Assembly: GCA_963975775.1 (NCBI GenBank)
Contig: CAXBIF010000001.1
Coordinates: 267,413 to 331,412, forward strand
Direction of reading: 5' to 3'
DNA length: 64,000 bases
From: an uncultured Herminiimonas sp.
GTDB taxonomy: Bacteria > Pseudomonadota > Gammaproteobacteria > Burkholderiales > Burkholderiaceae_D
Part shown: positions 2,931 through 63,311 of the stretch, one piece after another
How positions within the stretch are numbered: the stretch's first letter is position 1
Layout of the letters: the number at the start of each line of letters is the position of its first letter
Position numbers and translations under genes: made by a program
Notes under the pieces: generated by a model
What the model was told of the DNA's origin: nothing
The model's input: only the letters and a program-made list of their open reading frames with translations
The model's database searches: none

Positions 2931-3958
2931 CAGATCACCTTCGCGCGCGTCAAGTCGTGGATATGCACGGCACCGATTAATTTGTTGTCGTCATCAACCA
3001 CAAGCAACTGATTGATGCGATACGTTTCCATCATCTCGACCGCCTCAACTGCCAATTGTTCAGGTTTTAACGCACGTGGATTGGCGTGCATGACGTCAGC
3101 GATCAACAGTGTGGAAAGATCCTGCTTGCGTTCGATCAGTCGGCGCAAATCACCGTCCGTGAAGACGCCAATTGCATGACCGTCGTCATCCACCACGCTC
3201 GTCATGGCCATACCTTTTCTGCTGATCTCAAGCAAGGCCTCAGTAAGCGTGGCGCGTTGGGAGACAGCGGGGAGTGCGGCGCCGGTGCGCATGACATCGC
3301 GTACATGGGTCAACAGGCGTCGACCGAGCGCACCGCCCGGATGTGAGCGGGCAAAATCTTCTGCACCAAAGCCGCGTGCATCAAGTAGCGCCATTGCCAC
3401 CGCATCTCCGAGTGCTAAGGTCGCGGTGGTGCTGGCTGTCGGTGCGAGGTTGAGTGGGCAGGCTTCCTTGTCGACTTTGACATTCAAATGGACGTCGGCC
3501 AGTTGCGCTAAATTGGAGGCGTCATTGCCGGTGATGGCAATCAAGGTTGCACCCATGCGCTTAATGATGGGAACCACCGCGAGTAATTCTCCGGCCTCAC
3601 CCGAATACGAAATCGCAATCAGCACATCATCAGTAGTGATCATGCCCAAATCGCCATGCGAGGCTTCGGCGGCATGGACAAACAAGGCGGGCGTGCCCGT
3701 TGATGCTAGCGTCGAGGCAATCTTGCGCGCGATGTGCCCTGATTTACCTATTCCTGACACCACTACGCGCCCACGGCACGCTAACAACAATGCGACCGCT
3801 TTGCTTAAAAGTCCGGCGCTGTCACCAGCGAGGCGCGCTTTGAGCGCGAGCAAAGCGTCGGCTTCGATCTGGATGGTCTCGCAAGCAAACTGCAATGCAC
3901 GTTCGCTGCTGGCGGCATTAAAATCTGCCGGGAAAGAGGGGGCTTGGGTTACACTCAT
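2930..3958 (-). CDS. kdsD: Arabinose 5-phosphate isomerase (SIS + 2 CBS)
   Basis: GIGKSGHIARK, EASHGDLG, LAPTASTT, HPGGALG; start placed at ATG 3958 (ORF track opens at 3988). Confidence 0.95.
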   Translation of the reverse strand: MSVTQAPSFPADFNAASSERALQFACETIQIEADALLALKARLAGDSAGLLSKAVALLLACRGRVVVSGIGKSGHIARKIASTLASTGTPALFVHAAEASHGDLGMITTDDVLIAISYSGEAGELLAVVPIIKRMGATLIAITGNDASNLAQLADVHLNVKVDKEACPLNLAPTASTTATLALGDAVAMALLDARGFGAEDFARSHPGGALGRRLLTHVRDVMRTGAALPAVSQRATLTEALLEISRKGMAMTSVVDDDGHAIGVFTDGDLRRLIERKQDLSTLLIADVMHANPRALKPEQLAVEAVEMMETYRINQLLVVDDDNKLIGAVHIHDLTRAKVI

Positions 3959-7411: not shown

Positions 7412-8332
7412 ATGGAAATTTTAGAGCGCATACTTGGCATCATTCTGCCAGTCTTTATCATCATTGCCATCGGCTTTGCCTACGCGCGCGCACGTGGCGA
7501 AACGGTGCATGCTGATATGGCCTCGGTCAGTCGCGTCAGTATGAGTGTGCTGTCACCGTTACTGATTTTTACTGCGTTAGCTGGCAAGGATTTTGATCTG
7601 GCGCAAAACGGCATTTTGATCTTGATCGGTGTTGTCATTTCGCTAGGATCAGGCTTGATAGCATGGCCGCTCGCACGTTTGCTCGGGTACGACGTACGGA
7701 CTTTTGTGCCGCCGATGATGTACAACAATTGCGGCAATATGGGTTTGCCTTTGTCGGTATTAGCGTTTGGCGCCTCTAGTCTTGGATCAGCGGTTGCCTT
7801 GTTCATGGCCTGCAACCTGATGTATTTTTCAGTCGGTATAAAAATACTAGAAAGTGGCCGCGTCGGCACCGATCATCCGCGCAAAGCGCACTGGCAGTTC
7901 TTGCGCAACCCGATGATGATCGCGATGCTGCTCGGGATTATTTTTGCAGCGCTCAAGCCAGGCATTCCTGCGCCACTATTTACCGCCATGCAAATGCTGG
8001 GTAGCGCCTGCATCCCGATCATGCTGTTTTCGCTCGGCGTACGCATGCGCGATATTAGCTTTAAAAGTTGGCCCATCGGCATTGTCGGCGCTTGCGTCTG
8101 CCCGCTGGCTGGATTGATAGTGGCTTGGTTGCTTGATCAATCACTCGACCTGACGCAAGCGCAACGCGGCCAGATGTATTTGTTTGCCGCACTACCACCC
8201 GCAATTTTCTGCTTCATGATGGCCGAGCGCTACAAGCAAGAGCCGGACAAGGTGGCGTCCATTGTGCTGCTTGGTACGCTTTCAGCGTTGCTGTTTGTGC
8301 CGCTGGGGTTATGGATGGGTTTGCCTAAGTGA
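7412..8332 (+). CDS. AEC (auxin efflux carrier) family transporter
   Basis: About 10 TM segments, YNNCGNMGLP and ALPPAIF motifs. Confidence 0.88.
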   Translation: MEILERILGIILPVFIIIAIGFAYARARGETVHADMASVSRVSMSVLSPLLIFTALAGKDFDLAQNGILILIGVVISLGSGLIAWPLARLLGYDVRTFVPPMMYNNCGNMGLPLSVLAFGASSLGSAVALFMACNLMYFSVGIKILESGRVGTDHPRKAHWQFLRNPMMIAMLLGIIFAALKPGIPAPLFTAMQMLGSACIPIMLFSLGVRMRDISFKSWPIGIVGACVCPLAGLIVAWLLDQSLDLTQAQRGQMYLFAALPPAIFCFMMAERYKQEPDKVASIVLLGTLSALLFVPLGLWMGLPK

Positions 8333-8612
8333 GGTAGCGGTGAAGTGGCGAACCTGGCGCTAAAAGAGACGAGCTTCGATACTGGTTAAACGCGGGCAGT
8401 CTAGCCTTCTCGTTGACTAGTAATTCTGAGCCTGCTTCTTGAATGGTTAAGTAAGGGATGAATATGGCAGAAATTCCATATCCACGGGATGCCCGAATAG
8501 CCAGCAGTCTTCTATGCTGTTGAAGCATTAATCAATACACGGGATATTCATAGTTTTGCTTGATCAGTTTCAGGCATTTGTCACCGTAAAAAGCCTGCCG
8601 CTTTTTCGGATT

Positions 8613-8743
8613 TGTTTACAGCTGATGATTTGCACAGTACATTCTGTTTCAGCCAATCTCCACGGGGGCATGGAAGTAGCTTGCCGAGTTAGACAGCACG
8701 CTCTAGGTTATCCATCACTTTTTCTGTATAAAATAAGTTAGGC
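8613..8743 (+). other. Putative integron-type recombination site (attI-like or atypical long attC), copy 1
   Basis: Ends in GTTAGGC (8737-8743); internal GTTA at 8688 and 8707; homologous to 63177-63311 on the minus strand (47/61 ungapped over 8683-8743). Confidence 0.6.
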
Positions 8744-8749
8744 GTTGCA

Positions 8750-9421
8750 ATGAGCACACCCTGGAATCTCGGCGAACTGCGGACGCATGCCAAGAAAAAC
8801 TCTGACAGAACTACGCTCGAGCTTGTTGATTCAGTGAGTCGAAGCGACTCAATTTTTCAGTACCACGTATTCACTGCACGCGACGCGCTGAAAGGAATCC
8901 TCAACTACGAGGAGCCGCAGGGGGTAGAGAACTGGATGTTCATCCTCGGCGGCTCGGATCGTCAAGAAGAATTCTTCTATGCCAAGGTTGTCAGCGAAGC
9001 CAACCTGATTTCGTGCATACACACCGCTCGTAGCTTGCTTGAAACGTTCGCACAGCTAGTCAATCGCATCGTCCTTGAGAGCGCCATCGAAGTATCGAAA
9101 TGCACTCCAAAGGCAGTCGTTGCCAAGCTACCAAATGGTGAAATCAAGACCAAGCTCCAGGAGTTGCTTGCCTCACATTGGTTTTCATACACATCTGCAT
9201 TCACCAACACCGTCAAACACAGGCAACTCATTCAGCATCATGTCTCCATCTCGTTTGTAGACAACATCGTCGGCATCAAGGTTGGCGCATTCGAGTACGA
9301 AGGCGTGTCATATCCAGCCTACTGGGCCAATGAGTTTCTGCAGGGTGTTATCGATGTCAAGAATGAAATTATTGATCTTGGGCGAGCCCTCAATTGCACC
9401 CTGGCGCACGGCAACGCCTAA
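8750..9421 (+). CDS. Gene-cassette ORF, hypothetical HEPN-like protein (Cthe_2314-like)
   Basis: Helical 223-aa protein with FTNTVKHR motif; ATG 6 nt after GTTAGGC; stop codon lies inside GCCTAAC. Confidence 0.6.
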   Translation: MSTPWNLGELRTHAKKNSDRTTLELVDSVSRSDSIFQYHVFTARDALKGILNYEEPQGVENWMFILGGSDRQEEFFYAKVVSEANLISCIHTARSLLETFAQLVNRIVLESAIEVSKCTPKAVVAKLPNGEIKTKLQELLASHWFSYTSAFTNTVKHRQLIQHHVSISFVDNIVGIKVGAFEYEGVSYPAYWANEFLQGVIDVKNEIIDLGRALNCTLAHGNA

Positions 9422-9472
9422 CCCTTCAATCAAGAGCAAGCCGGGTTATGCCTCTCATCTCAAACGTTAGCG
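9416..9472 (+). mobile_element. attC site (59-base element)
   Basis: GCCTAAC CCTTC AATCAAGAG ... CCTCTCATCT CAAAC GTTAGCG, 57 bp; inverse core GCCTAAC is the exact complement of the cassette 5' core GTTAGGC. Confidence 0.8.
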
Positions 9473-9493
9473 GGCTTGTAAGTAGAAGGAGAA

Positions 9494-9527
9494 AATAAAA
9501 AAGCGAACGGAAGTTCGCTTTTTTATT
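9494..9527. terminator. Bidirectional intrinsic terminator (uvrA / cassette)
   Basis: AATAAAAAAGCGAAC-GGAA-GTTCGCTTTTTTATT. Confidence 0.85.
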
Positions 9528-9553
9528 GGCCAGTCGTTAAGAGTATCAATAAT

Positions 9554-12418
9554 TTATGCAGCCGCTTTTTTCTGCTTCAGCAAAGGCCCCAAATATTTTC
9601 CAGTAAAGCTGGCAGGATTTTTTGCCAAATCTTCCGGCGTACCGCTACCTATAATTTGTCCGCCGCCCGCGCCACCTTCTGGGCCCATATCAATCAGCCA
9701 GTCAGCGGTTTTGATGACGTCCAAATTGTGCTCGATGATGACGACGGTGTTGCCTTGATCGCGCAGACGATGAATTACTTTTAGCAATAAATCGATATCG
9801 TGGAAGTGCAAGCCGGTGGTTGGCTCATCCAGGATATACAAGGTGCGGCCGGTGTCGCGCTTCGACAATTCCAGCGACAGTTTGACGCGCTGCGCTTCGC
9901 CACCTGACAGTGTGGTGGCGCTTTGGCCGAGGCGGATGTAGCCGAGTCCAACGTCGAGTAGCGTTTGCAGTTTGCGCGCAATTACTGGTACCGGTTTAAA
10001 GAAAACGTGCGCTTCTTCTACCGTCATCTGCAGCACTTCGGTGATGTTTTTTCCCTTGTACTGGATCTCCATGGTTTCGCGGTTGTAGCGATTGCCGTGG
10101 CAGACGTCGCACGGTACATAGACGTCCGGCAAAAAGTGCATCTCAACCTTGATCACGCCATCGCCCTGACAAGCTTCGCAACGACCGCCTTTGACGTTGA
10201 ACGAGAAACGTCCTGCGGAATAGCCGCGTTCTTTGGATGCGGGTACGGTGGCAAACAGATCGCGTATCGGTGTGAATAAGCCGGTGTAGGTTGCAGGATT
10301 GGAGCGTGGGGTACGACCGATTGGTGCTTGATCGACCGAGATCACTTTGTCGAAATGTTCGAAGCCGCTGATCGTGTCATGCGCCGCCGGTTCTGCTTGC
10401 GAGCCGTAAAGATGGCGCGCTGCTGCGTGATACAAAGTGTCGTTAACCAAGGTTGATTTGCCGGAGCCTGAGACGCCAGTGACGCAGGTCAGCAAGCCGA
10501 CTGGTAGTTCCAAGGTAACGTTCTTTAAATTGTTGCCGCTCGCGCCCGTAATGACGAATTGTTTTTTCGGGTTTGGTGGCGTGCGTTTTGGCGGTACTGC
10601 GATGCCGAGCGTACCGTTTAGATATTTTGCCGTCAGCGATTTTTTGCTTTTTAAAATATCGGCCAGCGTACCTTCTGCGATTACTTCGCCACCATGCACG
10701 CCCGCACCGATACCCATGTCGACCACGTAATCAGCGCAACGGATCGCGTCTTCATCATGCTCAACCACTAGCACGCTGTTGCCGATGTCGCGCAGATGTT
10801 TGAGCGTCTCGATCAATCTGTCGTTATCGCGCTGATGCAAGCCGATTGATGGTTCGTCGAGTACGTACATGACGCCAGTTAAGCCCGAGCCGATTTGCGA
10901 GGCTAGGCGTATGCGTTGCGACTCGCCGCCGGATAAACTATCGGCGCTGCGATCCAGCGACAGATAATCAAGCCCAACGTTATTGAGGAAGGTCAGGCGC
11001 GAAATAATTTCTTTGACGATGCGATCGGCGATTTCTTTTTTTGCGCCGGTCAATTTCAAGGTCTCAAAAAACTCTAATGTCTGACGTAATGGTGTGGCCG
11101 CGACTTCATAAATTGCACGTTGCTGTTTACCGCTACCGACTTTGACGTAACGCGCTTCGACGCGTAGACGCGCACCATCGCAGCTAGGGCACCCTTTTTC
11201 ATTGATGAACTTGGCGAGTTCTTCGCGCACTGCCGTCGAGTCGGTTTCGCGATAGCGACGTTGCAGATTGTTGACCACGCCTTCAAACTCGTGCTCGCGA
11301 ATCACGGTACGGCCTTTTTCATTCACATACTGGAATGGAATCTTTTGTTTGCCTGAGCCAAAAAGCACGGCTTGTTGCGCATTCTCTGGCAGTTTTTCAA
11401 ATGGCGTGTCGATGTCGAACGCATAAAATTCAGCAAGACTGGTCAGCATCTGAAAATAAAACTGGTTGCGTCTATCCCAGCCTTTGACCGCGCCGCTGGC
11501 GAGCGATAGATTTGGGAAGGCGACGATACGCTTGGGGTCAAAAAACTCGATATGACCAAGACCGTCGCACTCCGGACACGCGCCCATCGGATTGTTGAAT
11601 GAGAACAAGCGCGGCTCTAATTCTTGCAATGAATAGCCGCACACTGGGCAAGCAAATTTGTTGGAGAACAGATGCGTCACTTCGCTATCCATTTCTACTG
11701 CGAGCGCACGTCCGTCGGCGAGTCTTAATGCCGTTTCAAAACTTTCAGCTAATCGTTGCTTGATGTCGGCCTTGACCTTGATGCGGTCGACCACGACATC
11801 GATCGTGTGTTTTTCAGTTTTCTTTAATTTTGGCAGCGCGTCGACATCATAGATGTGCGCATTGCCGGTACCGCTCTGCACGCGAAAGCGCACAAAACCT
11901 TGTGCCTGCATTTGTTCAAACAAATCCAGATGCTCGCCTTTGCGATTGGCAACCACCGGCGCCAAGATCATTAACTTGGTATCTTCTGGCATCGCTAATA
12001 CGGTATCGACCATTTGCGATACCGATTGCGCAGCCAGCGGCTTCTCTGGATGATCGGGACAATACGGTGTACCAACGCGCGCATACAGCAGACGTAGATA
12101 ATCGTGAATCTCGGTGACGGTACCGACGGTGGAGCGTGGATTGTGTGAGGTTGCCTTTTGCTCAATCGAGATCGCTGGCGACAAGCCTTCAATCAAATCG
12201 ACGTCCGGTTTTTCCATCAGCTGCAAAAACTGTCGCGCATAGGCGGACAAGGATTCGACGTAGCGACGCTGGCCTTCCGCATACAGCGTGTCGAAGGCGA
12301 GCGAGGATTTGCCAGAGCCGGATAAGCCGGTTATCACAATCAATTGATTGCGCGGTAAATCGAGATTGATATTTTTGAGGTTGTGCGTACGCGCACCTCG
12401 AATGCGAATTTGTTCCAT
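9554..12418 (-). CDS. uvrA: Excinuclease ABC subunit A
   Basis: [14 protein letters not shown], two ABC modules, zinc fingers CPVC/CPEC and CEAC/CDVC. Confidence 0.99.
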
Positions 12419-62179: not shown

Positions 62180-62302
62180 GAATTTTTTATTGGATGAGTA
62201 GAACGAGCGCTAGATGATACGCAAATTGGGGGAATGTGCCAGTCTTGACAGGCGGAGACTTTGTTGGTGACTGATGCGGTTGTTTCTTCGAACTAGCTTA
62301 GT

Positions 62303-62502
62303 GCCGGGGTAGCCCGGCGGCTACTCACTTTCTTTGCTTCGCCAAAGAAAGTAAGCAAAGAAAGGCGACCGCGAGCCGCTGCCCTTCGGGTTCCCATCGC
62401 TGCGCCGCAAAAAATGGGAAGTGAACGAAACTCGCCTGCGGCTCAAACAACGTTCACTTCTCGATCCATTTTCTGCAGCGCATCACTGGCAGCGTCACAG
62501 CG
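62303..62502. repeat. Multi-hairpin intergenic element (REP/MITE-like or structured RNA)
   Basis: ACTTTCTTTG/CAAAGAAAGT, GAAGTGAACG/CGTTCACTTC and further nested stems; cTTCGg loop. Confidence 0.7.
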
Positions 62503-62650
62503 ACAACATCGCCAGGTCTCGCCTGCGGCAACAGATGTGGAGCAATGTGTGCTTTATTTCAAGGAAATTTTGACCTATCACGCTAGAGGCTGCACATCGG
62601 CAAATTGTATGTCGCGTGTGTGCGTTGAATAACAAGATAGGTCGCGGCGA

Positions 62651-63160
62651 TTAAGAGTTAACTCTTGCATGTGCCTGTTGACGAATGGACTCCCTATTTC
62701 GATCATCTTCAACGATGGAGCCCAAGTATCTCTCCATTATGCAATTTACAATCGTTTTCAGGCTCTGTATTTCTCCGATTGCCTGTTCAAGCTCGCGTAG
62801 CGGTGCCTTGGAGTAGTCGACGTTAAGTTGATCTACCGATTCATTGATAGCGCTAAGGGATTCTTCATCTACCGTGTGTTGACGCACCCATCTCTCATAT
62901 GCGCCGGACTGGCGCATTCCCATAGCTGCTGCGACCGCATTTCGGGATCGTTTGGCACGAGCGAGTAGGTCAACCAAGTCTTCGGCTTTTTGAAACGCAT
63001 CTACTCCGGTCTTCATGATTTCAAGGCGCAACTCGAGCGCTTTGATTTCGTTCGTTTTGCGATAGCTTAAGTAACCCATGACGGCGCCAGCGATACCCGT
63101 TATGGTCCCTATCAAACCTGTGATTGCGCCGATATACGACAACAAATCAGTATTTTTCAT
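62651..63160 (-). CDS. Cassette-like ORF, hypothetical protein with N-terminal TM helix and helical/coiled-coil body
   Basis: ATG 16 nt after GTTAGGC with a GGAG RBS; IGAITGLIGTITGIAGAVMGYL TM segment. Confidence 0.7.
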   Translation of the reverse strand: MKNTDLLSYIGAITGLIGTITGIAGAVMGYLSYRKTNEIKALELRLEIMKTGVDAFQKAEDLVDLLARAKRSRNAVAAAMGMRQSGAYERWVRQHTVDEESLSAINESVDQLNVDYSKAPLRELEQAIGEIQSLKTIVNCIMERYLGSIVEDDRNRESIRQQAHARVNS

Positions 63161-63176
63161 ATGACTCCGATGGATG

Positions 63177-63311
63177 GCCTAACGTGTTTTATATAGCAAA
63201 AGTTATGGTTAACCTGGAAGGCGTTATATAACTCCGCCTACCTTTTCCATGGAAACCAGCATGGTTACTGCCTCAAACAAAGCGTTCTGTTCAAACGAGC
63301 AATAGTGAACA
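63177..63311 (-). other. Putative integron-type recombination site, copy 2
   Basis: Minus strand ends ...GCTATATAAAACACGTTAGGC; homologous to 8613-8743. Confidence 0.6.

Follow-up and report, generated by a model that had tools for sequence, protein, structure and literature searches.

Introduction

In a complete integron, the integrase IntI binds the R and L boxes of the attI site as well as two GTTA direct repeats, and pairs attI with the folded bottom-strand attC of a circular cassette. One strand is exchanged between G and TT of the core GTTRRRY, and the incoming cassette lands right after the G, downstream of the platform promoter. It is a signature of integron cassettes that their first six bases and their R″ box derive from one attC. 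In complex class 1 integrons, e.g., In104 of SGI1, a second attI1 lies by a truncated intI1 and is served in trans by intact IntI1. To our knowledge, attI is known for only a handful of integron classes and, consequently, integrase-less arrays have been listed without regard to the sequence at their head. The categories CALIN and SALIN are defined without attI, since attI is unknown for most integrons. They comprise attC sites lacking an integron integrase; loss of the integrase or insertion into attG has been given as their origin (PMC4889954; bioRxiv 10.1101/2022.09.11.507474). In Xanthomonas, satellite CALINs occupy a small number of loci that are conserved between species and separate from the ilvD-linked intI (bioRxiv 10.1101/2025.06.18.660453). 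When the literature was searched in full text for orphan, second or multiple attI sites, complex class 1 structures alone were returned.

Here, we describe attI-like sites in a 64,000-nt stretch of DNA (the window) and in the genome it belongs to. With high probability these are orphan attI sites, i.e., docking sites of a class-1-related chromosomal integron which retain the LexA-box/promoter region and a few decayed intI codons, the integrase itself being gone. With complex class 1 integrons they share the presence of two or more attIs on a replicon; there, one attI lies next to a deleted intI. However, the complex structures are recent rearrangements within one mobile resistance island, whereas the orphans described here are dispersed among housekeeping genes, are old enough to be shared by species and often reside in genomes without any integrase. 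Like CALINs and SALINs, the loci carry attC cassettes without intI nearby or in the genome, and IntegronFinder would probably call them SALINs or two-site CALINs; unlike these, they are headed by a recognisable cognate attI with the truncated 5′ end of intI, and the platforms are multi-copy. The Xanthomonas CALINs are similar in being satellite arrays that coexist with or outlive a single intI locus. They differ in that no attI-like sequence is described in the part of that report accessible to us, and in belonging to Gammaproteobacteria rather than to the Burkholderiaceae-level family considered here.

Two attI-like sites in the window

A sequence-only reading of the window had reported two homologous sites of approx. 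130 bp, and re-alignment confirmed the pair with its match, its GTTA spacing and its common end. Positions 8683-8743 (plus strand) and 63237-63177 (minus strand) are identical at 47 of 61 nt without gaps. GTTA starts at 8688, 8707 and 8737 in the first copy (s1, 8544-8743) and at 63232, 63213 and 63183 in the second (copy 2 or s2, at the Tex locus), so that the spacings are 19 and 30 nt in either copy. The homology breaks off precisely at GTTAGGC, beyond which unrelated ORFs begin, with an ATG after 6 nt in s1 (8750) and after 16 nt in copy 2 (63160). In the other direction, weaker similarity of the two continues to about −134 (blastn E 1e-11). Since no intI accompanies the window copies, we call them orphans. 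Their parts are as follows.

8508-8621, plus strand: distal part of the platform, decayed first codons of intI (minus strand) and intI 5′ region, also present in copies s3 (to −235) and s4 (to −200)
8622-8637, plus strand: decayed LexA box CTGATGATTTGCACAG, CTGT-N8-ACAG with one mismatch, aligning with CTGTACATTTGTACAG (genome G171), CTGTACATAAATACAG (G207a) and CTGTTTTTTTGTACAG (class 1)
8615-8643, plus strand: candidate Pc, TTTACA-17-TACATT, pointing toward the cassette, from a promoter consensus scan only
8686-8694, plus strand: DR2-like repeat GAGTTAGAC, 19 nt from the next GTTA as in attI1
8705-8713, plus strand: DR1-like repeat AGGTTATCC, the best-conserved block between species
8724-8743, plus strand: simple site composed of L box CTGTATAAAAT, a 2-nt spacer and R box GTTAGGC, putative crossover G8737/T8738
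63177-63310, minus strand: probable orphan attI copy 2, with the three GTTA given above, R box at 63183-63177 and a decayed LexA box at 63302-63287

Both window copies, therefore, meet the structural criterion for attI, a simple site of inverted L and R half-sites with two GTTA direct repeats upstream. The element likewise fulfils the criterion that it end in GTTRRRY, the core of the R box, and that the first cassette be attached at G|TT. The L box GTATAAAAC corresponds to GTTATAC in inverted orientation plus two additional A's and resembles CCTAAAAC in attI1. Binding of IntI to these boxes is an inference from sequence. The promoter hexamers of s1 recur identically in s4 and are weaker in s3 and s2 by sequence comparison; promoter function is likewise an inference.

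Further copies and their condition

The suspicion in the sequence-only reading that the genome holds more copies was borne out. A whole-genome search with a profile of the copies found four sites instead of two in 2.87 Mb (E 1e-50 to 1e-59), the next match having E 3.2. The two additional sites are located outside the window.

C1:160135-160328: copy s3, profile match
C2:143053-143256: copy s4, profile match

Homology between the four copies spans 134–235 bp and reaches −200 to −235 among s1, s3 and s4; the similarity of about 130 bp reported before thus holds and extends further, up to −235. The similarity exceeds chance by far, and the element is not a chance match. The copies are not in good condition: the LexA boxes of all of them contain a mismatch, and s3 has lost 8 nt of its L box and reads ATTAGGC in place of GTTAGGC. 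The GTT core is gone from some copies in genomes G025 and G014, too. We conclude that the copies in the source genome are decayed and now probably inactive.

Among the 26 genomes of the genus, 9 were matched by a sequence-only model of the last 100 nt of the element; in the family as a whole, the model matched 12 of 401 genomes, which belong to four genera. Approximately 24 copies from the four genera all end in ...CTGnATAAAaCAA|GTTRRRY and diverge immediately beyond. The motif GTTA(T/G)AC of the DR2-like repeat is conserved in nearly all copies and in the intI-linked homologues. A wider pattern scan of contigs mostly gave chance matches in AT-rich phyla; of relevance were three hits, in two Burkholderiaceae MAGs and in the chromosome of G171. 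No exact matches were found in other contigs, which had been searched for within-species polymorphism.

Other identities of the element were considered and rejected. For an IS end, a MITE or a tRNA-type element, terminal inverted repeats are missing and the left extents differ among copies. A decayed protein gene is true only of the distal 50–90 nt, which correspond to the 5′ end of intI; tblastn with IntI at word size 2 gave nothing more. Rfam, searched in E-value mode over 8300-9600, returned weak chance matches only, none of them on the element.

Homology to integrase-linked attI and to attI1

Homologues of the element were found next to integrase genes in two other genera of the family. 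In G171, the element is situated 80 nt from, and divergent to, an intact intI (TIGR02249 444 bits, cut-off 265) and is followed by a two-cassette array with canonical attCs. In G207, one copy (G207a) adjoins an intI which is truncated after residue 186, residues 1–186 being kept. Hence, the positional criterion for attI, between a divergent intI and the first cassette, is met for both homologues. The LexA boxes CTGTACATTTGTACAG and CTGTACATAAATACAG listed above lie at the intI start of G171 and G207, respectively, and 8508-8621 on the plus strand aligns with the intI start region of G171, G207 and class 1 integrons.

The IntI of G171 is 63% identical to IntI1. The intI1-attI1 intergenic region was compared with the element; the two align over the LexA box, DR2, DR1, the TAAAAC L box and the R box, with TAAAACAA(A)GTTAGGC at the end. 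A 62-nt attI1 sequence is present in at least 4,897 plasmid records at ≥99% identity. Its GTTA spacings of 19 and 32 and its end TAAAACAAAGTTAGGC agree with what the sequence-only reading had given for attI1, and CCCTAAAACAAAGTTAGGC is its counterpart of L box, spacer and R box. Class 1 attI1/5′-CS and the element follow one plan: the LexA box is close to where intI starts, the direct repeats DR2 and DR1 both carry GTTA, the L box (TAAAAC) has two additional A's, and a short spacer separates it from the R box GTTAGGC with its G|TT crossover. They differ in the spacing (19/30 here vs. 19/32), in the L–R spacer, which is 1 nt shorter here, and in showing only modest identity outside the boxes. 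In further contrast to class 1, the source genome has no adjacent intI, the element is repeated several times on one chromosome and the cargo does not consist of antibiotic resistance genes. Based on the alignment and on the identity of the integrases, we interpret the resemblance to attI1 as homology within a class-1-related lineage, not as coincidence.

The sequence-only reading had also offered a different identity, namely that of long atypical attC sites forming a family with a decayed left end. With this explanation, in which the element might also be an ORF-less cassette, each locus would be a two-cassette CALIN. The element does end in GTTRRRY like an attC, and TTATACAG...CTGTATAA within it form a short inverted repeat that is matched in copy 2 by a compensating change (TTATATA...TATATAA). 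However, attI1 aligns with the element and has the same kind of inverted half-site L box, in G171 and G207 the element is flanked by intI on one side and by the first cassette on the other, and neither an R″ box nor a match of an attC covariance model (see below) was detected on it. Moreover, on neither strand does it fold better than shuffled sequences (single-strand DNA energies, z +0.49 to −0.96). The missing fold is also consistent with a site that recombines as double-stranded DNA, a feature of attI. As there is no single-strand fold, the element is not an attC, and we reject this explanation, for which hardly any probability remains. In contrast, the position beside intI, the alignment with attI1 and the cassette signature described in the next section together identify the element as attI, an assignment we regard as very probable.

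Cassettes and attC sites behind the copies

An earlier attC finder based on regular expressions and pairing did not discriminate, and a covariance model was used instead. It was built from seven sites and briefly calibrated. Three of the four copies (s1, s3, s4) are followed by a cassette ending in an attC. The boundaries of the cassette behind s1 are directly observed; they are given here together with the cargo of copy 2.

8738-9466, plus strand: gene cassette 1, from the first bases TTAGGC to the G of the attC R′ box as last base, with an ORF at 8750-9421 (223 aa)
9416-9472, plus strand: attC of cassette 1, 57 nt, R″ GCCTAAC ... R′ GTTAGCG, ending ...CAAACGTTAGCG, 49.5 bits with the attC covariance model
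62651-63182, minus strand: cargo of copy 2, 169-aa ORF (63160-62651) with an N-terminal TM helix and no Pfam family

The 49.5 bits have to be read with caution, as this attC was among the training sites of the model. Its L″/L′ boxes resemble those of attCs in the true integrons of G010 and G171, and the palindrome criterion for attC (R″-L″...L′-R′ with extrahelical bases) is met at 9416-9472 and at C2:143754-143813. Across the whole genome, the model gave four matches, i.e., the training sites of s1 and s4 and two independent new ones on contig C5; in other genomes, it detected attCs behind most orphan copies. With four attC matches and no intI, the SALIN/CALIN criterion (at least one attC, no integron integrase nearby) is fulfilled.

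The ends of the cassettes correspond to each other. The s1 ORF ends within GCCTAAC (9416-9422), which is complementary at every base to the GTTAGGC that opens the cassette, and the pairs are ATTAGGC/GCCTAAC at s3 and a core GTTATGC with a downstream site beginning GCATAAC at s4. Expressed as start hexamer and R″, the pairs of the source genome are TTAGGC/GCCTAA (s1, s3), TTATGC/GCATAA (s4) and TTAGGG/CCCTAA (C5); those of relatives are TTAGAA/TTCTAA (G011a, G171-2), TTAGGT/ACCTAA (G171-1) and TTAGGG/CCCTAA (G244a). The first six bases are thus complementary to the cassette's own R″ and co-vary with it in eight cassettes, which is the signature of integron cassettes. In the source genome, the cassettes bear exactly the mark expected of attI × attC integration; the recombination itself is inferred.

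The earlier statement that each site carries one cassette holds only approximately. Behind copy 2, no attC is recognisable (best hit 4.4 bits, E 2.5, attC model with filters off), and s4 probably carries a second, weaker cassette. Concerning cargo, the 223-aa protein of s1 matched no Pfam family, s3 encodes an ABM domain and s4 a SUKH-4/SMI1 immunity-type domain. The ATG of the SUKH-4 gene is located inside the crossover core GTTATGC (position 3204 of locus L041, equal to C2:143256); translation, consequently, begins on the first bases of the cassette.

Absence of an integrase gene

No integron integrase was found in the source genome, which is assembled in six contigs and estimated as 100% complete; the best TIGR02249 scores were 82 and 65 bits against the cut-off of 265. 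The two genes concerned are tyrosine recombinases which we take to be XerC and XerD, an assignment that is not confirmed. A remnant of intI was not detected near any copy by tblastn with the IntI of G171; traceable are only the first 10–20 codons or so, on the minus strand to the left of the LexA box. Hence, the criterion of a complete integron, an integrase gene next to attI and attC, is not met in the source genome, and without an encoded IntI nothing can use the sites now. The proposal of scattered attI-like sites bearing cassettes without an adjacent integrase is, therefore, supported by the lack of intI in the genome and by the homology to attI1 and intI-linked attI.

The only intI in the genus is that of G010, which has no copy of the element. 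Its attI was examined as a possible relative and is not homologous (nhmmer); it belongs to a different lineage.

A second family of attI-like elements

The two new attCs on C5 are headed by another conserved element of 59 nt, which ends in GCGGTATACATTAC|GTTAGGN and is distinct in sequence from the first family.

C5:15957-16023 and C5:25444-25502, minus strand: copies of the second family, each followed by a cassette with canonical attC, outside the window

Together with the four first-family copies, the source genome has six orphan platforms. The second element was found in 19 of 301 genomes of the family (13 genera), often two or three times per genome. Divergently oriented integrase genes adjoin it in G249, where IntI is full-length, and in G099, where it is truncated; intI is absent at 10 of 12 sampled loci. 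In the 18 other genomes with the element, intI is present somewhere in eight and missing from ten. Orphans, therefore, outnumber integrase-linked copies across the family, in many genera. As orphans of both families exist, some with an intact intI elsewhere in the same genome, orphan attIs are general in the family.

Chromosomal loci in related genomes

All copies are intergenic, between housekeeping genes and near terminators. The s1 locus lies between an AEC-transporter gene and uvrA, which in about 16 of 26 genomes of the genus are separated by nothing but a bidirectional terminator of 60–110 nt. Because the site is mostly empty in the genus, the whole 1.16 kb from 8333 to approx. 9490 is a lineage-specific insertion, and platform and cassette were inserted together.

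8333-8507, plus strand: left part of the 1.16-kb insertion, 175 nt between the AEC-transporter gene and the platform
9494-9527, no strand assigned: bidirectional terminator of the AEC gene and uvrA, native to the locus and bounding the insertion on the right, conserved in relatives whose site is empty

Joint insertion is difficult to reconcile with ordinary SALINs, in which attC × attG events at GWT sites would have placed the cassettes downstream of a promoter or regulatory repeat that is conserved by coincidence. Solitary cassettes are indeed common and their genomic insertion is wide (bioRxiv 10.1101/2022.09.11.507474), and the intergenic sites near terminators would suit such an origin. 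However, attG targets have only GWT in common, while here 130–235 nt of flank are homologous between the sites and to intI-linked attI. We consider an attG origin very improbable.

Other loci are occupied in several species. At the Tex locus (DUF748/AsmA-like gene, attI, cargo, Tex), a platform is also present in G014, G011 and G025. The same three genomes have one at a metR-type locus, and the lpdA locus of s4 is occupied in G013 as well. The cargo at orthologous loci is directly observed to differ between species (four at Tex, three at metR, two at lpdA), and the loci of G011 and G013 hold at least two cassettes. A comparison of orthologous loci, suggested in the sequence-only reading, thus revealed empty aec-uvrA sites and different cassettes at shared loci.

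In a tree of the copies, those of the Tex locus cluster (0.93), as do s1, s3 and s4 (0.87); G207 copies group with one another, and so do those of G244. The attIs of the Tex locus are 69–76% identical, compared with 43–58% at four-fold sites of the flanking gene. This above-neutral conservation could also be due to gene conversion or recent exchange rather than selection, given that copies of one genome cluster. On the other hand, the attIs G014b and G025a are only 56% identical despite 94% identity of the flanking protein. Constraint, conversion and replacement all seem to be at work among the copies. Shared cargo at unrelated sites is observed directly, too: G014 and G017 have the same cassette (84% nucleotide identity from the first base past the core) at different loci behind attIs of 48% identity, and a 67%-identical cassette is common to G013 and G244. 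Since the same cassette is present behind unrelated attIs, cassettes have moved independently of platforms.

A few features of the flanks are mentioned separately. The AEC-transporter/uvrA region (8333-9553) is an insertion hot spot, with unrelated inserts of 0.3–1.3 kb or more in several relatives. The other loci with insertions are L016, L023, L022, L028, L033 and L034; neither attI nor attC was found in the inserts of L016, L023, L022 and L028. For 8333-8507, no homologues were found in the genome or in the compared loci. The s1 insertion is flanked by similar short strings, GGTAGCGGTGAAGT on the left and GTTAGCGGGCTTGTAAGT on the right (8336-8350 and 9467-9486), which may be a partial target duplication or chance; a GGCGAAC on the left resembles the terminator arm as well. 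At the Tex locus, conserved sequence shared with G025 resumes near 62540, beyond the cargo of copy 2. A GC-rich structured stretch upstream of Tex (approx. 62200-62540, minus strand), conserved at about 76–81% in G014 and G025, is native DNA outside the cassette and may be the leader of the Tex gene.

Discussion

If the sites are orphan attIs, a route to their present state can be proposed. Platforms would have been copied to several chromosomal sites as already-truncated units, and cassettes would have been delivered by an IntI encoded elsewhere. Its gene would have been carried by a transient element or situated at a different locus, for which G171, G207 and G249 provide examples. The sites would now be static mini-integrons, loaded while IntI was available, whose attI part may survive mainly as a cargo promoter, for which there is only a consensus match. 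Both the mode of platform spread and loading in trans are inferences.

A competing explanation needs no copying of platforms and no service in trans. According to it, the loci are relics of independent complete integrons, each of which had its own intI, was loaded in cis and later lost intI by deletion. Such loss is the standard explanation for CALINs (PMC4889954), and the truncated intI beside attI in G207a and in G099 can be regarded as intermediate stages. Some copies are ancient at their locus, e.g., at the Tex locus in four species, and the decay of boxes and attC fits long inactivity. Several observations speak against it, however. None of the six platforms in the source genome has a detectable intI coding remnant, s1, s3 and s4 share their end points (−200, −235) and cluster, the s1 site is empty in most relatives, and genomes with intact intI also contain orphan attIs elsewhere. 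Of particular interest are the orphans that appear to have been copied as orphans. G207 has four copies, the one beside the truncated intI and three orphans (b, c, d). These three and both orphans of G244 (a, b) end at about the same point, near codon 31 of intI, and G207 b, c and d have approx. 25 nt of non-intI flank in common; likewise, s1 and s3 share 35 nt beyond the boundary of s4. Shared stop points and flanks are not expected of independent deletions. G171, with its intact intI, also has an orphan copy of the first family. On balance, we think independent relics unlikely, without being able to dismiss them.

For the orphan attIs, loading in trans is plausible but unproven. In its favor are orphans in relatives that also have an intact intI, cargo turnover, cassettes shared by unrelated attIs and conserved IntI-binding boxes. 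Against trans use in this genome are the missing IntI, the mutated LexA boxes, the L-box deletion and ATT core of s3 and the lost attC of copy 2; this pattern of damage fits relics as well as working sites. A distributed integron, in which one possibly transient IntI serves dispersed attIs and attIs spread as truncated intI-attI(-cassette) modules, is a tentative possibility which we would not put forward as the expected outcome. Inserted cassettes have been reported to undergo outside excision (bioRxiv 10.1101/2022.09.11.507474). As pure speculation, platforms might have spread by IntI-mediated outside excision at a nearby GWT and re-insertion through the terminal attC. There is a GTTAAAC at 8384-8390, a possible left junction; under outside excision it would be that of the s1 insertion, which is speculation as well. 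A consistent IntI-type G|TT junction was not seen at the left ends of the orphans.

A recognisable, class-1-related attI is thus multi-copy, amounting with the second family to six orphan platforms in a 2.9-Mb genome without integrase. This suggests that orphan platforms are one origin of the many integrase-less cassettes in bacterial genomes; duplicated attI platforms would be a testable third origin of SALINs and CALINs. The loci bear on the question whether a single integrase can serve numerous docking sites in a working integron. Were the distributed integron true, many CALINs and SALINs would be neither debris nor the outcome of random attG events but satellites of a multi-platform system. 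Independently of this, conserved chromosomal hot spots with species-specific cassette content have been identified, and natural attI variants are available for dissecting what IntI1-like enzymes need of attI.

Three loci in other genomes contain additional structures. In G171, an orphan attI (L089, 5268-6170) precedes an ORF of approx. 290 aa, with no recognisable attC after it; by eye and without a family search, the ORF looks like a TIR-like or nucleotide-binding defence gene. In G207 (L077, contig C3, 2280-3803), a transposase-like gene of 507 aa, probably an IS element, follows directly after the first attC behind orphan b, and orphans c and d are part of a segmental duplication of about 2.3 kb. 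Finally, G114 (L078, contig C102, 484-1138) has a tandem pair of attIs 565 nt apart, with a cassette and its attC (640-698) between them.
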